This document shows, piece after piece, positions 5,820 through 27,247 of a stretch of DNA of 64,000 bases. The stretch spans positions 1,881 to 65,880 of the forward strand of contig JBAYHJ010000001.1 of the NCBI GenBank assembly GCA_041666225.1, in the 5' to 3' direction. Every line of letters starts with the position of its first letter. The first letter of the stretch is position 1. Under the pieces are notes generated by a model, which saw nothing but the letters and a program-made list of their open reading frames with translations, was not told the DNA's origin and made no database searches. Both the position numbers and the translations under genes were made by a program. The DNA comes from Minisyncoccota bacterium. Lineage in GTDB: Bacteria > Patescibacteriota > Minisyncoccia > Phycocordibacterales > UBA9973.

Positions 5820-6548
5820 TTACCGAAGCCTTGCTTCGGTAGGTTCTATTTCTTCTATCTCTAACCATTCAAATATTTCTTTCTTGAAAATATTTGGGTC
5901 CTCAAAATAATCAGGGAATTTCTCTTTATTTAAAATCAAATTTTCTGGTCTTTTAGATAAAAGATAATCATTATAACTACTCCATTTGTATGAATTAAGA
6001 AAATTAATAGCTTCTGTTTTATTATTTATCCCTACTTCCTTCCAGTCAGATTGAATCAATTTAATAGGATTTAAGTGTATATATGAAAATAAATATTTTG
6101 CTTGTATTTCATCTTCAATATGAATAGATTTAAATTTACCTTCAAATAAAGACCCTGTTCTGTTATGTTTTTTATTAAAATATTTTGCATATGCGGTACA
6201 GAGTTTTCCCATAAATTCAGTTATATTATTCCTCTCTTCATCTTTCCCATTAGACCTACCGAAGCCTTGCTTCGGTAAAGCTATTAAATACAAGTGGAAA
6301 TGGTTGGGCATCAGTACCCATGCACCAATAGCTACTAACTGGTCCCCCCTTTCAAAATCCCAAGCACTTATTTTGGGTTGAATGATATCATCTTTAAAAT
6401 TAATTCCTTTGGTTGAATTACAAAGAAATAAAAGCTTGATAAAGCGATCTCTATCTTCATCATCAAGAAAGATTATTTGTTTATTGTTTCCTCTATTGTA
6501 AATATGATAATATTCACCATCCACAAGTGGAACTTTTCTTAAAGACAT
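5820..6548 (-). CDS. REP-associated tyrosine transposase (RAYT, IS200/IS605 TnpA-like HuH-Y1), copy 1
   Basis: 242 aa; N-terminal YHIYNRGNNKQIIF, HuH motif LMPNHFHLYL, C-terminal WSSY...Y motif; flanked and interrupted by REP1 palindromes. Confidence 0.8.
   Translation of the reverse strand: MSLRKVPLVDGEYYHIYNRGNNKQIIFLDDEDRDRFIKLLFLCNSTKGINFKDDIIQPKISAWDFERGDQLVAIGAWVLMPNHFHLYLIALPKQGFGRSNGKDEERNNITEFMGKLCTAYAKYFNKKHNRTGSLFEGKFKSIHIEDEIQAKYLFSYIHLNPIKLIQSDWKEVGINNKTEAINFLNSYKWSSYNDYLLSKRPENLILNKEKFPDYFEDPNIFKKEIFEWLEIEEIEPTEARLR
5821..5841. repeat. REP1 palindrome taccgaagccttgcttcggta (copy a)
   Basis: perfect 8-bp arms; copies at 6256..6276, 6573..6593, 24612..24632. Confidence 0.8.
6256..6276. 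repeat. REP1 palindrome (copy b), located in-frame inside the RAYT-1 ORF (translates LPKQGFGRS)
   Basis: sequence identity to other REP1 copies. Confidence 0.8.
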
Positions 6549-6572
6549 ATATTACATTATACTACAAAGGTT

Positions 6573-6593
6573 TACCGAAGCAAGGCTTCGGTG
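6573..6593. repeat. REP1 palindrome (copy c, loop inverted: taccgaagcaaggcttcggtg)
   Basis: sequence. Confidence 0.75.
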
Positions 6594-6641
6594 GATATCT
6601 CGTTTCCCATGATTTTTTATTAAGTTAATTTTAATACCTTA

Positions 6642-6671
6642 ATAATACCCCCCCCCGAAAAATGAAGTCAG
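6642..6671 (-). promoter_or_regulatory. putative sigma70-like promoter with 9-nt poly-G in spacer (minus strand: ctgact-N18 incl. G9-tattat) upstream of RAYT-1
   Basis: C9 tract at 6648..6656 on plus strand; same architecture at 7748..7777, 23865..23895, 25464..25494. Confidence 0.45.
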
Positions 6672-6677
6672 CACATC

Positions 6678-6703
6678 AAAAAATACCCTTGCGGGTATTT
6701 TTT
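6678..6703. terminator. hairpin terminator aaaaaataccc-ttgc-gggtatttttt (duplicate of the rplB terminator at 7825..7851)
   Basis: sequence. Confidence 0.65.
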
Positions 6704-6760
6704 GATGATAGATTTTATATTTTTTTCTAAAATTATTTTGCTTTTCCAACTTTTCGGCGG

Positions 6761-6893
6761 GAGACAATCCACATGTTTGAGTATTTCTTTGGTGTTCTTG
6801 TCTTCTGTCCTTTTCCTGTTGGTTTACCCCACATACTTTTGGCTCGGCGTAGTCCGCGTCCTTGGCGTCCTTCACCTCCGCCGTGGAAACTCG
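6761..6893 (-). pseudogene. duplicated 3' fragment of rplB (encodes ...GGGEGRQGRGLRRAKSMWGKPTGKGQKTRTPKKYSNMWIVSRRK), no start codon
   Basis: near-identical to 7984..8116 of the intact rplB; the overlapping ORF-track entry 6639..6944 is in a different frame and judged spurious. Confidence 0.75.
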
Positions 6894-7016
6894 CAATAAC
6901 GGTTCATTAGAATTCCTTAATATATTATGAGATAAAACAAGCAAAAACGGTTATTTTAGAAAGATTACAAACAAAAAGCAACCACCTTAATCACAGTTAC
7001 ACTAAGATTATATTAA

Positions 7017-7745
7017 TTAATATTTATGTTTATTTTTTTTATTGGCAAGATCACCACGTAAATTTTCTATTAAATAAGTTGATTTGCCTGATTTTTCATT
7101 ATTTTTTTCGTATTTTATTGCTAATTTATCAAACATCTCTTCATTTTCGTCATCTACTGCTTTATAAAGTGCCCTGGAAATATATTTGTCTTCTAAGTGT
7201 AAATGAGCATTTTCAAGAGACCATGTTCTTTCAATTAAATTTTTACCAACAGCTTCATCGAGAATATTTTTTACTTTCCTTTCATCAAATTTTATACCAA
7301 GTTCAATTGCCCTTTCTGCCCAGCAATATAAATTAAACGGTGTTTTATAATCATGTCCCTCCTTTTCTTTTTTATAGAGTTCAATAAAATCATTAATATA
7401 TCCCAATATTTCAATAGGATCATTTACTCTATATTCTTTTGATTCTTTTATTACTTCTAGTAAAAAAGCGTCAACGTCCTCACTTTTTAACTGACCTACT
7501 TTTTCTTGAGTTCCATCTTTAATAATCTTACTTTTTTCATTAAATTCTCTATTTTCTATCTCTGCCTCATCTCGAACATTTTCAGATTCTTGAGCAAGAT
7601 TATTAAGCTCAAAATAAGCCTCCCTTGCATCTTTCCCCCCCGCCTCAATTTTTTCTTGAGTAGCTATTGTTCTTTTATTTAAATCCTCTGCATTAGTAAA
7701 ATTTTCCATATAAATATTCAAAAATATTATTAATAATATACACAT
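7017..7745 (-). CDS. hypothetical acidic/Lys-rich protein (likely true start MENFTNAEDL at ~7711)
   Basis: 242-aa ORF; driven by poly-G promoter 7748..7777; contains an internal G7 tract at ~7626-7632. Confidence 0.55.
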   Translation of the reverse strand: MCILLIIFLNIYMENFTNAEDLNKRTIATQEKIEAGGKDAREAYFELNNLAQESENVRDEAEIENREFNEKSKIIKDGTQEKVGQLKSEDVDAFLLEVIKESKEYRVNDPIEILGYINDFIELYKKEKEGHDYKTPFNLYCWAERAIELGIKFDERKVKNILDEAVGKNLIERTWSLENAHLHLEDKYISRALYKAVDDENEEMFDKLAIKYEKNNEKSGKSTYLIENLRGDLANKKNKHKY

Positions 7746-7747
7746 CT

Positions 7748-7777
7748 ATAGTACCCCCCCCAGACATACATTGTCAA
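7748..7777 (-). promoter_or_regulatory. putative poly-G spacer promoter (minus strand ttgaca-N18 incl. G8-tactat)
   Basis: C8 tract 7754..7761 on plus strand. Confidence 0.45.
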
Positions 7778-7824
7778 TAAAGATAAAAATATAAAAAACT
7801 ATCAAACCAACTTTTTTAAAAAAC

Positions 7825-19024: not shown

Positions 19025-19798
19025 TTATTCTAATGTAGTCCCTGATAAATTATCAATATTAAACGATTCAATCCAGTCGGAAATTTGTTTATACTGTTTA
19101 TCTTCATCTCCAAATAATTCAATCAAAAAATCTTTTTTAATTATCGAGGGAAAATTTTTCTTTCCAATATAATCAAGCAAACTACTCCACCTATAATTCA
19201 AAAGGAATTCTAAAGCTTTTTCAGGGTCAGAAATCTTGCCGTTTCGCCATTCTTTAAATTCAAAGTCGAGTGGATTTAAATGAATATATATAGGGAGGTA
19301 CATAAAGTGTGCATCATTTTCTATGTGAATTGATTTAAATTTGCCCTGGAAAAGCGCTCCGTTTCTTTTGTACTTTTGATTAAAATAATTCGTATAACCA
19401 GTTCCAAGCTTTCTCATAAAATTCGTAATTCCATTTTCTTCTTTTTGTCTAATGAGCATATGAAAATGATTGTCCATCAAACAATAAGCCAAAATCTCCA
19501 CAATCGGCTCTTTCCTCTTGTTTTTTATAATTGTTGGAAGTCCGACTTCCAACAATTTGCTTTGACTTTGGTGACGAGAGATTAAATTATTAATATTAAT
19601 TGAAGGATTTTTATCATTAAATTCATACATATCATGAATAAATCTAAAATTATCTCTTTCATTAATAAAAATATTCCTTTTATCTACCCCTCTGTTGTAA
19701 ATATGATAAATCTCATTTGTGGCAAATTTTGATTTTCTAATTGACATATAACTATTATAACAAATTAAATAAATTGTTGGAAGTCGGACTTCCAACAA
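19025..19798 (-). CDS. REP-associated tyrosine transposase (RAYT), copy 2; probable true start MSIRKSKF at ~19744
   Basis: IYHIYNRGVDKRNIF, HuH CLMDNHFHMLI, C-terminal YRWSSLLDY; REP2 palindrome in-frame at 19529..19557 (LEVGLPTI) and another at the 5' end. Confidence 0.75.
   Translation of the reverse strand: MLEVRLPTIYLICYNSYMSIRKSKFATNEIYHIYNRGVDKRNIFINERDNFRFIHDMYEFNDKNPSININNLISRHQSQSKLLEVGLPTIIKNKRKEPIVEILAYCLMDNHFHMLIRQKEENGITNFMRKLGTGYTNYFNQKYKRNGALFQGKFKSIHIENDAHFMYLPIYIHLNPLDFEFKEWRNGKISDPEKALEFLLNYRWSSLLDYIGKKNFPSIIKKDFLIELFGDEDKQYKQISDWIESFNIDNLSGTTLE
19529..19557. repeat. REP2 palindrome inside RAYT-2 coding sequence
   Basis: aattgttggaagtccgacttccaacaatt. Confidence 0.8.
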
Positions 19799-21281: not shown

Positions 21282-23300
21282 ATGCATATGAATCCATTTA
21301 TTATTTTTGCTCTTGTTTCTTCAGTTATCGCAATATTATATGGTTTACTTTTAATCAAAGTTGTTCTTAAAAAAGGTACTGGTGATGCTAAAATGCAAGC
21401 TATTGCAAAAGCAATCCAAGAAGGTGCAAGTGCATATTTAAATCGCCAATACAAAACTATTGGAATTATCGCGATCGTTCTATTCTTAATAATCGGTCTA
21501 GTGCCAATGCTCGGCTGGATGATGGCAATCAGTTTTATTTTTGGAGCTATTTTATCAGCAGTTGCAGGATACATCGGCATGAACGTTTCCGTTCGTGCAA
21601 ATGTCCGCACCACAGAAGAAGCAAAGAAAGGTTTGAAGGAAGCTCTGTCACTTGCTTTCAAAGGCGGAACAGTTACAGGACTTTTGGTTGTTGGTTTAGC
21701 CTTGCTTGGAGTTACTGTTTTCTACATGATTACCGGGGATGTGAAGTCTCTTATTGGTTTATCATTCGGAGCAAGTTTGATTTCAGTTTTCGCTCGACTA
21801 GGCGGTGGAATATTTACAAAAGCTGCGGACGTCGGTGCTGACCTTGTCGGCAAAGTTGAGGCTGGAATTCCAGAAGATGATCCTCGTAATCCTGCTGTTA
21901 TCGCTGATAATGTTGGAGACAATGTTGGAGACTGTGCTGGTATGGCCGCTGACTTATTTGAAACATATGCTGTGACTTCTGTTGCAACAATGCTTCTAGG
22001 CTCTCTCATGTTTGCTGGTTTTGGAAATGCAATTATCTACCCGCTCGCTATTGGTGGAGTTGCAATAATTTCTTCAATCATCGGTACATGGTTTGTAACA
22101 CTTGGAAAAAATAAAAATATCATGGGTGCTTTGTACAAAGGATTAATCGCTGCAGGAATTCTTTCTGCTATTAGTTTCTACCCTATTACAAAATGGCTTA
22201 TGGCTGACAATGGACTCTACTCAGTTGGAGCATTATATGTAAGTGCTTTAGTTGGTATATTTGTTACAGCTTTAATAATAGTTATAACAGAGTACTACAC
22301 TTCAACAGCTTACAATCCTGTGAAATCAATTGCGCAAGCAAGTCTCTCAGGTCACGGTACAAACGTGATTCAAGGACTTGCTGTTTCGATGAAATCTACT
22401 GCTTTCCCATTACTTACAATCGTGGCTGGTATTTTAGTCTCTTATCATTTTGCTGGTTTGTATGGAATAGCAATCGCAGCGATGTCCATGCTTTCTCTTA
22501 CCGGAATCATCGTCGCTATCGATTCATTTGGCCCTATCACTGACAATGCTGGTGGTATTGCTGAGATGGCAGGACTTCCAGATTCTGTCCGCGCAGTTAC
22601 TGACCCACTAGATGCTGTTGGAAATACAACAAAGGCGGTGACAAAAGGTTACGCTATCGGTTCAGCTGGACTTGCAGCTCTTGTACTCTTTGCTTCATAC
22701 ACACAAGAATTTGCAAACCTAGGACATTCTCTAACTTTTGATTTAAGTAATCCTAAAGTTATCGCAGGTCTACTTATAGGAGGATTACTTCCTTACTACT
22801 TCAGTGCTCTATGTATGGAAGCCGTAGGGAAAGCTGCCGGAAAAGTTGTTGAAGAAGTTCGCCGACAATTCAGAGAAATTAAAGGTATCATGGACGGAAC
22901 AGGTAAACCTGATTACGCTACTTGTGTAGATATCGTTACAACTGGTGCTCTTAAACAAATGATTCTTCCAGCTGTTATTGCCGTTCTCTCTCCAATCCTA
23001 GTTGGATTTATTTTAGGCCCTGAAGCTCTTGGTGGTTTACTTGTCGGTTCAATCATCACAGGGATATTCCTCGCAATCTCAATGACTTCCGGTGGTGGAG
23101 CATGGGACAATGCTAAGAAATATATTGAACTTGGAAACTTTGGTGGTAAAGGTAGTGACGCTCACAAGGCAGCCGTCACAGGAGATACTGTCGGAGACCC
23201 CTATAAAGACACAGCCGGCCCAGCCATCAACCCAATGATTAAAATCCTAAATATCATTGCTTTGATTCTGGTTCCAATTCTCGTTTCCTTTTGGTTTTAA
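21282..23300 (+). CDS. hppA: membrane-bound H+/Na+-translocating pyrophosphatase
   Basis: 672 aa; multi-TM; motifs [62 protein letters not shown]. Confidence 0.92.
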
Positions 23301-23329
23301 TTAATTTAAAAATTAATTAAATAGATAAT

Positions 23330-23380
23330 AAAAAATCCCCCGCCAACATCTTATGAAGTTGTGGCGGGGGATTTTTTAAT
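23330..23380. terminator. hairpin aaaaaatcccccgcc...ggcgggggatttttt after hppA
   Basis: sequence. Confidence 0.7.
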
Positions 23381-23400
23381 TTACTTTTCTATTCTAATAA

Positions 23401-23802
23401 TTAACCTTTCTTATTCATAAATTTATATACTATATCAATTTGTTCTCTTAACTTTTTACCTTCTTCTGGATTCATTATTTCAGCTGCTCTCACAAAAATT
23501 TCCATATTCTTATATTGAGATATCCACTCCCTATTATTCAAGAGATGATCCTTCACGGATCCAGGTTGTCCTGAGCCGGCTTTTCCTTCTAATATTTCTT
23601 TGGAATTATAAAACAACTTTGTTTTATAACTATTAAAATTACGTTCATAAAGTCTTGAATCTTTTTTATAAACCTCAATCATATTTAAGGTTTCTTTTTC
23701 TGCATTATCCATTATTTCTAAATACGCAGGACTAACATCATTACTCTCCTCTTTTTTACTATCACCCTCATTGTTATTTTGAACTTTATCAAATTGTCCC
23801 AT
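23401..23802 (-). CDS. hypothetical acidic protein
   Basis: 133 aa; immediately downstream of poly-G promoter 23865..23895. Confidence 0.5.
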   Translation of the reverse strand: MGQFDKVQNNNEGDSKKEESNDVSPAYLEIMDNAEKETLNMIEVYKKDSRLYERNFNSYKTKLFYNSKEILEGKAGSGQPGSVKDHLLNNREWISQYKNMEIFVRAAEIMNPEEGKKLREQIDIVYKFMNKKG

Positions 23803-23864
23803 AAATTTTATATTTTAATCCGCCTCAGCAGATAAGTTAATAATGCAAACTTTCTAATACCCTC

Positions 23865-23895
23865 ATTCTACCCCCCCCCTCATATGAGGTGTCAA
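23865..23895 (-). promoter_or_regulatory. putative poly-G spacer promoter (minus strand ttgaca-N19 incl. G9-tagaat)
   Basis: C9 at 23871..23879; ~90-nt block 23803..23895 is ~90% identical to 25402..25494. Confidence 0.5.
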
Positions 23896-23979
23896 GGAAA
23901 ATGTAATGCTTGACAATAATATAGCAATTTTGCTATATTAGTAATAAGTGGTATTTTATGTTGTGATATAATAATATTA

Positions 23980-24285
23980 ATGAATAAATTCAAGGTATTA
24001 TTTATAAATGAAGTTAGAAATTTTATTAATTCGCTTCCAGATGAAGATAAAGGTAAAATCAACTGTGATTCAAATGCTATGGAATTAGGTAATTTTGATT
24101 CCTTATACATCAAAACACTTAGTACTCCTATCAAGGAATTAATTATTAAAAAATACAGACTAATCTTTTTTATAAATAAAAATGAAATCTGGTTTATAGG
24201 AGCATTTATAAAGAAAACTTCCAAAACTCCAAAAAATGAAATAGAAAATGCTAAAAAGTTATACAAAGAAATTATTAATTTATAA
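23980..24285 (+). CDS. HigB/Gp49-like (RelE/ParE superfamily) toxin
   Basis: 101 aa; C-terminal IWFIGAFIKKTSKTPKNEIENAKKLYKEI typical of Gp49/HigB family; plus-strand promoter ttgaca-N18-tatatt at 23914-23943. Confidence 0.6.
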   Translation: MNKFKVLFINEVRNFINSLPDEDKGKINCDSNAMELGNFDSLYIKTLSTPIKELIIKKYRLIFFINKNEIWFIGAFIKKTSKTPKNEIENAKKLYKEIINL

Positions 24286-24295
24286 CAAAAAATAT

Positions 24296-24601
24296 ATGAA
24301 AACAATTAAAACAAAAAATGGTAAAACTTTAAAGTTTTATACTGCAGATGAAGTATTTAAAAAAGATTCAAAATCTAAAGTTTTTGTTGAGGCTTATAAC
24401 GAAGAACTTATTCGGTTAAATCTCGTAGGTGAAATTAAAAAGTTACGACTTGCAAAAAAATATACTCAGAAAGACCTCGCCCAAAAAGCACAAATGCCTC
24501 AATCTGTAATAGCCCGAATAGAGAGTGGAGAACATAGTTTCTCTCTTGGTACTCTTAGCCGTATCGCAAAAGTATTCAAAAAAGAAATACAATTAGTCTA
24601 A
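24296..24601 (+). CDS. XRE-family HTH antitoxin (HigA-like)
   Basis: [33 protein letters not shown]; overlaps/abuts toxin gene. Confidence 0.6.
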
Positions 24602-24611
24602 AATAAAATTC

Positions 24612-24632
24612 CACCGAAGCAAGGCTTCGGTA
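24612..24632. repeat. REP1 palindrome (copy d) abutting the hppA 3' fragment
   Basis: caccgaagcaaggcttcggta. Confidence 0.8.
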
Positions 24633-24635
24633 AAT

Positions 24636-24737
24636 TACAAAGATACCGCAGGACCCGCAATCAATCCAATGATTAAAATATTAAATATCATTGCTCTCAT
24701 TATCGTTCCGATCTTGGTTGCAATTTGGTTTAAATAA
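24636..24737 (+). pseudogene. orphan diverged copy of hppA 3' end (encodes [33 protein letters not shown])
   Basis: ~78% nt identity to 23193..23300, differences mostly synonymous; followed by hairpin terminator 24758..24796. Confidence 0.75.
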
Positions 24738-24757
24738 AATCTAATCGAATTATCAAC

Positions 24758-24796
24758 ATTAAAAAATCCCTCACTCGAGGGATTTTTTAATGTGGG
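24758..24796. terminator. hairpin aaaaaatccctcactcgagggatttttt
   Basis: sequence. Confidence 0.65.
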
Positions 24797-24798
24797 TT

Positions 24799-25401
24799 TT
24801 ATTTTTCCCCATGGGGAAGTTCTTCAATTGCCTGAGGTCCATCCCAAGCAAAATGCAGATATTTATTTTCTATTTTTTCTTTTAGGGCAAAAGATAAATA
24901 CAAGTTAAACCCTTTTTTGACTGAATCTTGTTCAATTCTTTCTTCTCTATTTTGAATAGAAGTAGAAATATTTTCTGGCCTCTGATTTTGACTCAAATTA
25001 TAAAGAACTGCCTTATCTACATCAGCAACAAAATTAATTTTTTCTAGTTCTTCTTTACTCAACTGATTAACGAATTCTTTAACTATTTTTGGATCTTTTA
25101 TAATTAGAGATTGATATCGACCTCCATTTTTTACATCATTTTCCCAACTTTTATCTTCTTTGTTTACAGGAAATTCTTCTAGAAAAAGATTTTTAAGACT
25201 TTCGACTTTTTCATCTGGAACATAAGAAACTTCTCTGTCTATAAAATCTGCATCTTCATCATTACCGTGATAATCCACAGGTAAAAACCAAGTGTATTTA
25301 TAATTTTCAATTAAATCACTAACCACTTTTCTTATTTTTTGTTTTTCGACAGTATTTTCATCTTTTTTTACTGCTTCGTTTTTATTTAATCCTTCATTCA
25401 T
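24799..25401 (-). CDS. hypothetical acidic protein
   Basis: 200 aa; preceded by poly-G promoter 25464..25494. Confidence 0.5.
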   Translation of the reverse strand: MNEGLNKNEAVKKDENTVEKQKIRKVVSDLIENYKYTWFLPVDYHGNDEDADFIDREVSYVPDEKVESLKNLFLEEFPVNKEDKSWENDVKNGGRYQSLIIKDPKIVKEFVNQLSKEELEKINFVADVDKAVLYNLSQNQRPENISTSIQNREERIEQDSVKKGFNLYLSFALKEKIENKYLHFAWDGPQAIEELPHGEK

Positions 25402-25463
25402 AAATTTTATATTTTAATCTGCCTCAACAGATAGTTAATAATGCAAACTTTTCTAATACCCTC

Positions 25464-25494
25464 ATTCTACCCCCCCCCTCATATAACCTGTCAA
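25464..25494 (-). promoter_or_regulatory. putative poly-G spacer promoter (ttgaca-N19 incl. G9-tagaat), paralog of 23865..23895
   Basis: C9 at 25470..25478. Confidence 0.5.
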
Positions 25495-25574
25495 TACAAC
25501 CCCTTAAAACCATATTTACTTTTAACCCAGCGTGCGCTATAGCGTAATATGAGTTAGGATGATATAATCTAATT

Positions 25575-26057
25575 ATGTCTATAAAGAATGAAATACTGGA
25601 AATATTAAAAACCCCTAAATTCTATTATAAAGGTATTCCTATGAATGCTTTTTTCCTCCCAGCTTTTCAAAATTATAAAAAACAATCAATTAGAAATAAA
25701 TTTTCCTCACTATATGATGATGGGTATTTGGATAAAAAGAATGGGCATTATTTTCTAAATAAAAAAGGGAAAGAATTTTTAGAAAAATCACCTAAATTAC
25801 AATTAAAAATATTCGAGCCAATAAAAAATAATGGTCCAAAAAATTTACTTTTACTTTATGACATTCCCGAGAGTATGAAAAAGGAACGTGATTGGTTTCG
25901 TAGGACATTAATCAAATTTAGTTTCATTATGATTCAAAGGAGTGTCTGGGTTGGTCCATCTCCTCTTCCTAAAGAATTCTTAGATTATGTAAAATCAATT
26001 GGTTTAAAAAATTCAATTAAAACATTCAAATTAGAAAAGGGATTGGTGAATAATTGA
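25575..26057 (+). CDS. hypothetical protein with C-terminal Cas2/PaaX_C-like segment
   Basis: 160 aa; LLLLYDIPESMKKERDWFRRTLIKFSFIMIQRSVWVG resembles Cas2 / PaaX C-domain pattern; -10 gatataat at 25552-25559; 36-nt palindrome terminator 26062..26097. Confidence 0.45.
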   Translation: MSIKNEILEILKTPKFYYKGIPMNAFFLPAFQNYKKQSIRNKFSSLYDDGYLDKKNGHYFLNKKGKEFLEKSPKLQLKIFEPIKNNGPKNLLLLYDIPESMKKERDWFRRTLIKFSFIMIQRSVWVGPSPLPKEFLDYVKSIGLKNSIKTFKLEKGLVNN

Positions 26058-26161
26058 TTTTAACTCACTATGCGCGATAGCATACAGTGAGTTAAAATCA
26101 ATTTAGTGATAATTATTTAAGGTTTGAAAATATATTAATTTTAGTATAAGATGTAAAAACT

Positions 26162-27247
26162 ATGCAAACAACAATTAAAAAATTAGATAAAAGTGAGTTA
26201 GAAATCATCGGTACTATCGAAGCCGTCGAGTTTGAAAAATATGAAGCGAAAGCTCTAGAGAAAGCTGGTGAAAGGCTTGAACTTCCTGGGTTTCGAAAAG
26301 GAAAAGCTCCTGTGGCAATGATCAAAGAAAATATCCCAGAAATGGAATTACTCGAAGAGATGGCGGAGATTGCAATGATGGATAATTACATGAAAATCTT
26401 AGAAGAAAATAAAATCGATGCAATCGGTCGCCCACAGATTGCAATTACAAAAATTGGCAAAGGTTCTGATTTGGAATTTAAAATTATCACTGCAGTTCTT
26501 CCAGAAGTAAAACTCCCTGATTATAAAAAAATATCAAAAGAACAGTGTTCAAAAGAAGATTTTAAAAAAGAAATTAACATTGAGGAATCTGAAGTTGAAA
26601 AAACAATTCTTGAACTTCGAAAAATGAGAGCCGAACAAGCCAAAGGTACAAGTCATGAGGGGCATGAACATATGACAGAGGAAGAACATACAAAAATTCA
26701 CGCGGAGGTTAAAGAAATTCCTGAGAGTGAATACCCAGCATTTGATGATGAGTTTGCAAAAAGCTTTGGTGATTTTAAAAATGCGGATGAACTTCGTGAA
26801 AAAATAAAAAATAATTTAAAAATTGAAAAACAAACTGAGTTAAAAGACAAACTTCGTTTAGCAATAGTTGAAGACCTAGTGAAACAAACTGAAGTTGAGA
26901 TTCCTGAGATTTTAACTCAAAGTGAAACTGACAAAATCATGTATCGCCTTCAAGCAGATATAACCAATGTTGGTTTTAAAATGGAAGATTATTTAAAACA
27001 AATAGGAAAAACTGAGGAAGATCTACGAAGTGAGTGGAAACCCGAAGCAGAGAAACGTGCAAAACTACAAATGATAATCCACACCATTTCAGAAAAAGAA
27101 AATCTCGCCCCAACAGAAGAAGAAATAGAAAAAGATGTTACACAAATTACAACTATGTACAAAGATGCTGACCCAAATCGCGCCCGAGCTTACGTGGAAC
27201 AAATGCTTGAAAATGAAAAAGTGTTTAAGTTTCTTGAAACACAATAA
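26162..27247 (+). CDS. tig: trigger factor (short form, apparently lacking PPIase domain)
   Basis: 361 aa; N-terminal ribosome-binding signature GFRKGKAP. Confidence 0.8.
   Translation: MQTTIKKLDKSELEIIGTIEAVEFEKYEAKALEKAGERLELPGFRKGKAPVAMIKENIPEMELLEEMAEIAMMDNYMKILEENKIDAIGRPQIAITKIGKGSDLEFKIITAVLPEVKLPDYKKISKEQCSKEDFKKEINIEESEVEKTILELRKMRAEQAKGTSHEGHEHMTEEEHTKIHAEVKEIPESEYPAFDDEFAKSFGDFKNADELREKIKNNLKIEKQTELKDKLRLAIVEDLVKQTEVEIPEILTQSETDKIMYRLQADITNVGFKMEDYLKQIGKTEEDLRSEWKPEAEKRAKLQMIIHTISEKENLAPTEEEIEKDVTQITTMYKDADPNRARAYVEQMLENEKVFKFLETQ

Follow-up and report, generated by a model that had tools for sequence, protein, structure and literature searches.

Candidate poly-G promoter modules ahead of unrelated small acidic genes in the hppA-tig interval of a Minisyncoccota bacterium

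The window analysed here is a stretch of 64,000 nucleotides from a Minisyncoccota bacterium (GenBank assembly GCA_041666225.1, contig JBAYHJ010000001.1, positions 1,881 to 65,880). The NCBI names of its proteins are those of a metagenome-assembled genome of Candidatus Paceibacterota. Between its genes for a membrane pyrophosphatase (hppA) and trigger factor (tig) lie two small acidic open reading frames (ORFs), here called geneA and geneB, each preceded by a nearly identical block of candidate promoter and leader with an uninterrupted run of nine Gs between the -35 and -10 hexamers (P1 and P2, Table 1). P1 and P2 are probably two copies of a promoter-leader module that is widespread in the Paceibacteria of the Candidate Phyla Radiation (CPR), and the genes that follow the module differ from one copy to the next.

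The poly-G module and the genes behind it

Read on the minus strand, both blocks have the order TTGACA-N10-G9-TAGAAT-GAGGGTATTAGAAA, followed by a leader that ends in GATTAAAATATAAAATTT-ATG. Their similarity (23800-23895 against 25399-25494) is bounded exactly by TTGACA (-35) on one side and by ATG on the other and amounts to about 93% identity, with five substitutions and two 1-nt indels over 97 columns. A sequence-only reading of this DNA had already described two blocks of about 90 nt and about 90% identity with the same -35, G9, tagaat and leader, and its coordinates are right within a few bases. That the similarity might be confined to low-complexity sequence is not borne out when the region is compared with itself, because the non-repetitive 20-mer TAGAATGAGGGTATTAGAAA in the block occurs exactly twice in the window where 0.02 occurrences are expected. 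The same reading had the blocks drive unrelated acidic ORFs, and geneA and geneB are indeed unrelated (BLASTP E=14). Its interpretation is thus supported, and by its sequence the block is in addition a member of a larger family of poly-G promoters.

All four runs of at least eight Gs in this window of 34% G+C sit between -35-like and -10-like hexamers on the coding strand of a downstream ORF, and TAnnAT-NN-RRGTATTA is present in the window only beside G-runs. It is on such sequence features that P1, P2 and their relatives are taken to be promoters. The ordinary genes of the window look different. Three of the 42 ORFs of at least 150 amino acids in the whole window have a Shine-Dalgarno-like motif, and by eye several ordinary genes show a TATAAT-like -10 box, in some cases with TGn, 6-12 nt ahead of the ATG. 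This suggests that expression in this Paceibacterium is largely independent of Shine-Dalgarno motifs and possibly leaderless, so that the poly-G promoters would form a distinct class that depends on the -35 box and bears a leader.

A scan with the pattern G7-TAnnAT-NN-RRGTATTA, which requires seven Gs, the TAnnAT box and RRGTATTA, matched at least 118 metagenome contigs with tracts from G7 to G11 (related contigs are cited below by working labels, the L-numbers). The viral collection gave no match to this pattern. An unrelated repeat from coral metagenomes (L101, L102, L111, L124, L145, L167-L169, L177, L179 and L198) was excluded from all statistics; this repeat (TAAACCCCTAGGCTGTTTAATT-G7-10-TACCATTTAAGTATTAGAT..) is highly conserved and has neither a -35 box nor an ORF where they would be expected. 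A match of at least 5/6 to TTGACA at 15-23 bp, which is no part of the pattern, was found in 64% of 105 family members as against 5% of random positions. For 90% of the matches, compared with 20% of random positions, an ORF of 40 or more amino acids begins with ATG 15-70 nt downstream. When 613 kb of low-GC contigs, chosen for at least one poly-G run, were searched for runs of at least eight Gs, 87 of the 92 runs fitted the pattern and four of the other five had a -35-like box 9-10 nt upstream. The consensus of the module is TTGACA or TTGCCA as the -35, 9-10 nt, an uninterrupted G7-G11, TAnnAT as the -10, RRGTATTA(G/A)AAAT, an A/T-rich leader and ATG. The leaders in the family are mostly 36-50 nt long and have no Shine-Dalgarno motif.

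The ORFs driven by the module are diverse. BLASTP groups 66 of them into 59 clusters; Pfam has no match for most, and each of the 21 families that were found is matched by one ORF only. Their median length is 135 amino acids and 57 of 69 are net acidic. Copies of promoter or leader stand ahead of different ORFs also outside the window: L119 and L133 have a leader in common, L143 and L171 a promoter, and L151 carries two copies. In L128 three poly-G units follow in a row (2723, 4369 and 5352), two of them with nearly identical upstream sequence, and the ORFs of these two share only the N-terminus MNENEPK. Shared promoter blocks before different ORFs are thus a general property of the poly-G family.

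Unrelated ORFs that open with M(x)EG(L/V/A)N(K)N(E) were noted in geneB and in L085, L098, L104, L105, L114, L139, L185 and L203. The conserved module may reach a few codons into the gene, or the N-termini may carry a common signal.

GeneA has a single homologue, P0003 in contig L084, with 67% identity and dN/dS (ratio of nonsynonymous to synonymous substitution rates) of about 0.38. It lies in another genomic context, yet is preceded by TTGCCA-N9-G9-TATTAT-AAGAGTATTA. The family of geneB has three members, geneB included, among 1.84 billion representative proteins searched exhaustively with HMMER; the other two are in L114 and L203, and all three stand in the hppA slot behind a G9 promoter. 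Neither geneA nor geneB has a match in Pfam, PADLOC or PHROGs, and their AlphaFold2 models (mean confidence, pLDDT, 78.5 for geneA and 67.6 for geneB) have no fold match in the PDB at E<0.9. An anti-restriction or DNA-mimic role for these small acidic proteins is only a guess.

The leaders may share a structural element. When folded one by one, 14 of 14 hppA-linked leaders form a small hairpin 5-16 nt before the AUG, with loops of 3-5 nt, mostly 4 (GAAA, GAAG, GAGA, UGAG, UAAG), and with varying stems (GCC/GGC, CGC/GCG, CAUCA/UGAUG, AUCUGC/GCGGAU, AUCCAU/GUGGAU). In an alignment of 18 columns from 11 leaders, which was anchored by hand on the hairpin and is therefore biased toward structure, the three core pairs are 94% paired as against 67% in shuffled sequences (0 of 500 reach the value) and 18-36% in slid controls, and eight cells are changed on both sides, that is, in a compensatory way. 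RNAalifold found no structure in a MAFFT alignment of the 14 leaders, in which the hairpins are misaligned. This evidence for a conserved leader hairpin is supportive and not conclusive. The possibility that the leader is a known riboswitch or leader RNA was ruled out by the lack of an Rfam match.

Tract length and a possible expression switch

The part of the spacer that does not consist of G is constant at 9-10 nt, so adding 9-10 to the tract length gives the distance between -35 and -10. P1 and P2 have 19 bp, and the family ranges over 16-20 bp with the mode at 18-19. Comparison of related copies shows, at the level of sequence, that tract length changes without compensation in the spacer. 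Orthologous hppA-linked promoters carry G8, G9 or G10. L143 (G9) and L171 (G8) are identical over 19 nt upstream and 32 nt downstream of the tract, and one upstream 20-mer carries G9, G8 and G7 in L109, L151 and L121. Even in lineages with flanks about 20% diverged, the tract is still an uninterrupted run of G, and its length varies.

Homopolymers of G or C of such length are hot spots for indels through slippage, and a -35-dependent promoter responds to spacing changes of 1 bp. Slipped-strand mispairing would add or remove a G, alter the spacing between -35 and -10 and thereby the strength of the promoter, unit by unit. The outcome would be heritable and reversible variation in the expression of a swappable repertoire of accessory genes. 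We infer from these sequences that each unit is a contingency-type switch or tuner of one accessory gene. Given that the module is a promoter, functional switching by tract length is on balance what we expect.

Such arrangements have precedents, and in mechanism the promoters with a homopolymer in the spacer are the closest known systems. The opc gene of Neisseria meningitidis has a phase-variable promoter with a poly-C tract, and repeat tracts in the promoter spacer control variable genes in Mycoplasma hyorhinis (vlp, poly-A) and Haemophilus influenzae (hif, TA-repeat). The vlp and hif systems resemble the poly-G units in the spacer repeat tract, in a variable gene family with conserved 5' regions and in tandem units, and differ from them in the type of repeat and in their products, which are lipoproteins or fimbriae. 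Unlike in vlp and hif, the conserved part here stops at or just past the start codon and the bodies of the ORFs are unrelated. In porA and opc of N. meningitidis, as in the poly-G units, an uninterrupted G/C run of about 9-11 nt between -35 and -10 alone sets the spacer. Four sites in the window have a homopolymer of at least 7 nt between recognisable -35 and -10 hexamers, and the tract varies between related copies with conserved flanks and an uncompensated spacer. In meningococcal porA, where the G-run likewise lies between -35 and -10, expression was 2-fold lower with 10G and 13-fold lower with 9G than with 11G (PMC3639595). In contrast to porA and opc, the run here is part of a conserved composite module (G-run, -10, RRGTATTA and leader) common to at least 100 unrelated ORFs in many uncultured lineages. 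The hosts, free-living or episymbiotic CPR bacteria, are no mucosal pathogens. The genes encode small acidic proteins, most of which look cytoplasmic and a few of which start with a hydrophobic stretch, and these are not known surface antigens; switching is here a proposal.

Several observations weigh against a switch. Four assemblies of the same strain (the window, ENA ERZ27249449, JGI 3300037810 and Logan SRR6484324) agree in their tracts (G9, G9, G9, G8), though they may derive from one sample. Tract length is also equal in 8 of 8 pairs of contigs with fully identical flanks; six of these pairs are family members, and two (L134/L192 and L140/L176) have no -35 box and may fall outside the poly-G family. 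The distribution of tract lengths is narrow with a peak at 9. As to the promoter itself, a sigma-70 consensus scan made no call for P1 or P2, which can be blamed on its limit to spacers of 16-18 bp and on the 19-bp spacing of both promoters and does not count against a promoter. Identical tracts among assemblies and pairs are compatible with a stable majority length, and they are equally predicted if the G-run is a fixed cis-element of a regulon-type promoter that has its own recognition factor, for instance an alternative sigma factor or a PaaX-like or helix-turn-helix (HTH) repressor or activator, with length differences due to neutral drift or assembly noise.

A fixed element of this kind would also fit the strict coupling of RRGTATTA in the start region to the G-run, as part of the recognition site of a dedicated factor, and the observation that the divergent neighbour is regularly a gene for a DNA-binding protein. 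However, a binding or structural site should hold its length or the total spacing, whereas the tract ranges from 7 to 11 uncompensated and the distance spans 16-20 bp. Copies with identical flanks differ in their tract, many family members are far from any PaaX or HTH gene, and from general knowledge of homopolymer slippage a pure G9 is intrinsically prone to indels. We regard the fixed element as doubtful, and a tract that switches or tunes the promoter is the reading that we keep.

Contig breaks at the tracts were considered as a sign of length heterogeneity and discarded, as they are not enriched (2 of 105); the break in L003 falls in a stretch of 35 nt common to P1 and P2. Two modules look decayed. 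In L147 (7850-7885 of the retrieved sequence) the run is preceded by GAGAGAGA and the -35 box lies 24 bp from the -10, and in unit 1 of L163 (5340-5420) a G10 run is followed by AATGTG instead of a TAnnAT box. In the window a further run of seven Gs (7635-7641) lies within the coding sequence of the poly-G-driven ORF 7017-7709 (..EAGGKD..). It has the same length in all assemblies and is possibly a second, translational frameshift switch.

The hppA-tig slot and the origin of its two units

In L004, the closest relative at species level (the C-terminal half of hppA is 95% identical), tig starts 94 nt after hppA and the slot between them is empty. The whole interval 23301-26161 of the window is therefore accessory. 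Its G+C content is 0.22-0.30 as against 0.33-0.44 in the flanks.

A match to hppA is carried by 13 of the contigs found with the promoter pattern, which were not selected by hppA, and in 12 of the 13 the poly-G promoter lies in the hppA-tig slot. Two arrangements recur. The order in L147, L123, L096 and L188 is hppA, terminator, ORF, leader, poly-G promoter and a PaaX/Cas2-like gene, and the first three of these contigs reach tig. In L119 and L114 the promoter is followed by genes for a Gp49-like and an HTH protein, and these contigs stop before tig; the downstream sequence of L119 resembles the tig promoter of the window. The gene order is rearranged in L182, whose hppA is only 50% identical. 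The part covered by L193 is limited to the promoter, the PaaX-like gene and tig; L203 was found via geneB. The ORF in the slot differs in nearly every lineage. The sequence comparison thus shows the gap between hppA and tig to be a hot spot for accessory genes, and the comparison with related genomes that the sequence-only reading had proposed shows cassette-like behaviour, with an empty slot (L004), a single unit with a different ORF (many lineages) and two units with orphan hppA ends (L163).

In the window the slot holds two units. That each of them follows an hppA 3' end and a similar terminator, as the sequence-only reading had stated, holds on alignment. The orphan end (24636-24738) and the true end (23202-23304) have 78% DNA identity, and 29 of 32 residues are identical in the translations. 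Both ends are followed by AAAAAATCCC...GGGATTTTTT hairpins with a perfect stem of 17 bp between an A-run and a T-run. The tandem of hppA end with terminator, convergent gene and poly-G promoter was correctly described and needs to be completed by a Gp49/HTH gene pair and a hairpin that resembles repetitive extragenic palindromes (REP), both located between unit 1 and the orphan. Order and orientation of the repeated parts are conserved, with spacings of 1434 and 1599 nt.

Such conserved order would fit a local tandem duplication of hppA end, terminator, gene and promoter, with later divergence and gene replacement in this genome. The differences between the two hppA ends are of another kind. 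The proportion of synonymous differences (pS) is 0.70, which is near saturation, and that of nonsynonymous differences (pN) is 0.074; both ends must then have been maintained for long as working gene ends in separate lineages, and a local duplication is rejected on this pattern. The three-way DNA identities among real end, orphan and L004 are 75-79%, and the two ends of the window are as distant from one another (75%) as each is from the other species (78-79%), with differences that are almost only synonymous. GeneA and geneB are unrelated, and the right-hand module of each unit is found alone elsewhere (L147 and L119). A duplication within this genome is therefore very improbable, and the comparison of the sequences shows that one of the two hppA ends is of foreign origin.

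Counterparts of both units can be recognised among the relatives. In L147 the intact hppA has the C-terminus ..VAFWFK* and AAAAAATCCCTCAAGCGAGGGATTTTTT behind it, an arrangement of the same type as the orphan of the window (..VAIWFK*, AAAAAATCCCTCACTCGAGGGATTTTTT). The Gp49/HTH_3 pair of the window has 91% and 90% amino acid identity to that of L119. With these matches the window looks like a unit of the L119 type placed ahead of a unit of the L147 type, which supports a merger of two diverged versions of one locus and not a local duplication.

As to the route, it would appear that a 1.43-kb segment (about 23202-24635) from a relative diverged at roughly the species level recombined into the resident locus with hppA as the homology anchor. 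The segment would have comprised the last 33 codons of hppA, the terminator, geneA, P1 and the Gp49/HTH pair, ending at the REP-like hairpin. It would have supplied a new in-frame end to hppA, while the resident end and the unit of geneB, P2 and PaaX were pushed downstream, the end as an orphan. At its simplest, this would take a single hidden homologous crossover within hppA plus a single illegitimate junction where hairpin and orphan meet. Two points weigh against this account. Parsimony and synteny suggest the direction in which the insertion took place but cannot prove it, and a breakpoint within hppA could not be mapped, the relatives having only about 75-90% DNA identity in every segment.

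The source is a metagenome-assembled genome, and one short Logan contig breaks at the repeated block, so two strain variants stitched together in tandem, or poly-G noise of two-colour Illumina sequencing, have to be considered. However, the junction of hairpin, orphan and geneB with the upstream HTH gene is internal to contigs of three assemblies, and comparable tandem or orphan arrangements are seen in unrelated samples (L163, L085 and L185). The G-runs are internal, 7-11 nt long, constant in orientation and context and present in many projects of different ages. An artefact is thus scarcely credible.

Orphan hppA ends arose independently in L163, L185 and L085. L163 has two full units and five pieces of hppA ends, L185 one orphan behind a hairpin, and L085 an orphan of 48 codons ahead of tig. 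The orphans start 21 (L163 and L185), 32 (window), about 38 (L163) and 48 (L085) codons before the stop. Four different positions speak against one common attachment core and in favour of imprecise recombination anchored by homology. At three of the orphan junctions there are hairpin elements.

An alternative raised by these hairpins is that the second unit came in as a discrete mobile element. It could be an integrative cassette with the hppA 3' end as its target and a replacement end as part of its cargo, or a segment moved via its terminal hairpin by a REP-associated tyrosine transposase (RAYT, of the Y1 HUH type). A REP-like hairpin (yyyA-CCGAAGC-AAGG-GCTTCGG-Trrr) lies exactly at the orphan junction. 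It has four copies in the window (CCGAAGC-N3-GCTTCGG, 4 against 0 expected), and the three others cluster on a RAYT-like Y1_Tnp gene: two are in frame within ORF 5820-6548 (5823-5839, at its C-terminus, and 6259-6275) and one lies just upstream of it (6575-6591). The Y1_Tnp match of this ORF is weak (E=0.004), and another at 19025-19750 has E=3e-10. In L163 and L185 a hairpin (CCCCGTAGT...ACTACTGGGG) abuts orphan hppA ends that start at the same codon. RAYT-like genes are near poly-G units in L084, L086, L114, L153, L166, L182 and L203, and the insert holds a toxin-antitoxin-like pair, which is common on mobile DNA. Against this stand the different orphan starts, which leave no single att core, and the lack of an integrase or recombinase in or adjoining the insert by Pfam search (it encodes only geneA, Gp49 and HTH_3). 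There is no hairpin at the left end, and REP hairpins gather in any non-coding gap, so that the location at the junction may be secondary. The insert has no BLASTN match in phage or plasmid collections, and an origin from phage or plasmid was rejected on this ground and because the poly-G pattern is absent from viral contigs. All in all a discrete mobile element is unlikely.

Known systems help to place the tandem. The prophages phage 21 and e14 sit in icd of Escherichia coli and bring a replacement icd 3' end. The likeness lies in the insertion at the 3' end of a housekeeping gene, in a diverged incoming end that differs mostly at synonymous sites and keeps the gene intact, and in the old end orphaned at the far border; hppA 3' ends with mainly synonymous differences are found at both borders of the insert. 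Unlike these prophages, the insert is 1.4 kb long and encodes geneA, Gp49 and HTH_3 and no recombinase of its own, and a fixed crossover core is not seen, as the orphan starts differ between the window, L163/L185, L163 and L085. The insert is better explained by recombination between two alleles of the locus, anchored by homology, than by site-specific integration. With integron arrays the slot shares small, diverse and mostly unknown ORFs stacked as modular units with repeated boundaries at one chromosomal site. No IntI, attC or common Pc promoter was found in the nusA-clpP region and beyond; in contrast to integron cassettes, each unit has its own promoter and intrinsic terminator, and the repeated boundary is a fragment of hppA. 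As in REP/RAYT systems, there is a Y1 (HUH) transposase-like gene with an associated short hairpin repeated in the genome and clustered around it, and one hairpin is at the insert junction. The difference is that only one hairpin borders the insert; it is co-located with the junction at 24610-24634 and may have had a part in forming the tandem. A mechanism of the RAYT/REP type for the junctions is a live rival to homology-anchored recombination.

Some observations on these elements stand by themselves. In L163 (4684-4997 and 6541-6832) and L185 (1-172) a hairpin element of 62 nt (..CCCCGTAGT..ACTACTGGGGTG) and the last 63 nt of hppA form repeats of 125 nt. Each new copy of the repeat leaves the hppA reading frame open, and the orphans of both contigs start at one codon (..TG|ATTAAAAT). 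A second RAYT-like Y1_Tnp gene of the window (19025-19798) lies about 1.5 kb upstream of hppA; L114 has a RAYT-like gene with 62% identity similarly far upstream of hppA, and L086 has a fragment. A vertically inherited, domesticated RAYT would fit. Behind the fourth poly-G promoter of the window (minus strand, 6560-6680) there is only an ORF of 12 codons (MGNEISTEALLR*) that runs into a REP hairpin, followed by the RAYT-like gene, which has a -10 box of its own. A RAYT/REP insertion seems to have replaced or truncated a poly-G-driven gene at this place. The called ORF of 101 amino acids at 6639-6944, which reads through the G-run, is probably spurious.

Neighbouring features and biological meaning

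The region from nusA to clpP and beyond has genes with matches to RAYT, NusA, H_PPase, Gp49, HTH_3, PaaX_M, Trigger factor, CLP_protease and AAA_14 (for the slot see Table 1). The Gp49-like and HTH_3 genes are separated by 10 nt and have a common promoter, which is conserved in L163, L119 and L114. As an adjacent operon of a Gp49/RelE-fold gene and an HTH_3 gene they are predicted to be a HigB/HigA-like toxin-antitoxin or regulator module. The PaaX_M/Cas2-like gene is bracketed by similar palindromes (25521-25556 and 26052-26103) of the form TTAAC(C/T)CA..GCGC.ATAGC..TGAGTTA, the second with perfect arms of 18 nt; gene and palindromes may be a separate small mobile or regulatory unit. No Rfam family was above threshold in 22500-26500, and the whole window gave four tRNAs only.

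Table 1. Positions in the window of the hppA-tig interval, its two units and the other poly-G promoters
Feature	Position	Strand	Remarks
Fourth poly-G promoter	6608..6680	(-)	G9 (6648-6656)-TATTAT-TAAGGTATTA, then only a 12-codon ORF running into a REP hairpin
Third poly-G promoter	7709..7782	(-)	TTGACA-N10-G8 (7754-7761)-TACTAT, ahead of acidic ORF 7017-7709
hppA (membrane H+/Na+ pyrophosphatase), intact	21282..23300	(+)	Pfam H_PPase E=6.5e-273; 92-95% amino acid identity to L004
Intact hppA 3' end repeated as orphan	23202..23300	(+)	Ends ..VSFWF*; direct repeat; probably came with the inserted segment
Bidirectional intrinsic terminator 1	23329..23378	both	A-run, perfect stem of 17 bp, T-run; common to convergent hppA and geneA
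geneA	23401..23802	(-)	Acidic ORF, 133 amino acids, predicted helical bundle
Leader 1	23803..23864	(-)	62 nt; conserved start-region motif GAGGGTATTAGAAA; small stem-loop 23818-23833
Poly-G promoter P1	23865..23895	(-)	-35 TTGACA 23890-23895; N10 23880-23889; G9 (C9 on the plus strand) 23871-23879; -10 TAGAAT 23865-23870; spacer 19 bp
Divergent promoter of Gp49/HTH pair	23910..23939	(+)	TTGACA-18-TATATT with TG; top match of the consensus scan, 11/12
Gp49-like and HTH_3 pair	23980..24601	(+)	Gp49-like 23980-24285, Pfam Gp49 5e-11; HTH_3 24296-24601, Pfam HTH_3 7e-15
REP-like hairpin	24610..24634		CCACCGAAGCAAGGCTTCGGTAAA; at junction of inserted segment and orphan hppA end
Orphan hppA 3' end	24636..24737	(+)	Last 32 codons with one additional Lys and stop; lacks a start codon and the gene body upstream; ends ..VAIWFK*
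Bidirectional terminator 2	24756..24793	both	AAAAAATCCCTCACTCGAGGGATTTTTT; from inverted repeat and terminator scan; geneB converges on the hairpin
geneB	24799..25401	(-)	Acidic ORF, 200 amino acids
Leader 2	25402..25463	(-)	62 nt; stem-loop 25417-25432
Poly-G promoter P2	25464..25494	(-)	-35 TTGACA 25489-25494; N10 25479-25488; G9 (C9 on the plus strand) 25470-25478; -10 TAGAAT 25464-25469; spacer 19 bp
PaaX_M/Cas2-like winged-helix gene	25575..26057	(+)	Pfam; usual right-hand neighbour of the slot; syntenic in L147, L123, L096, L188 and L193
tig (trigger factor)	26162..27247	(+)	Right border of the variable slot

The apparent novelty lies in a composite poly-G promoter module that is conserved in CPR bacteria and stands before a very large repertoire of orphan genes arranged like cassettes, with switching as a plausible property. 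A search of the available literature library found no paper that links phase variation, homopolymers or poly-G promoters to Patescibacteria, CPR or Parcubacteria. To our knowledge the transcription signals of the CPR are essentially uncharacterised, and we know of repeat-tract phase variation almost only from host-adapted pathogens. As a tentative extension, which we hold to be conceivable and short of probable, Paceibacteria and perhaps other CPR bacteria might keep a 'phasome' of many module copies per genome, each of which would control one small acidic orphan protein of its own by stochastic switching or tuning. Strains would trade these genes as cassettes at hot spots such as hppA-tig, and the orphan gene ends would be remnants of exchanges that did not proceed cleanly.

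If this is true, ultra-small and uncultured symbionts from the environment would possess a system of contingency loci, with the start-region motif and the leader hairpin as a further, common level of control. Even with invariant tracts, the module would be a new and specific class of CPR promoter. The hppA-tig slot offers a clean natural example of swapping and stacking of accessory genes in reduced genomes without obvious mobile-element machinery, and the module, which is easily recognised and is conserved in at least a hundred metagenome contigs, flags a large set of small acidic proteins that otherwise defy annotation as a single co-designed class of accessory gene products.

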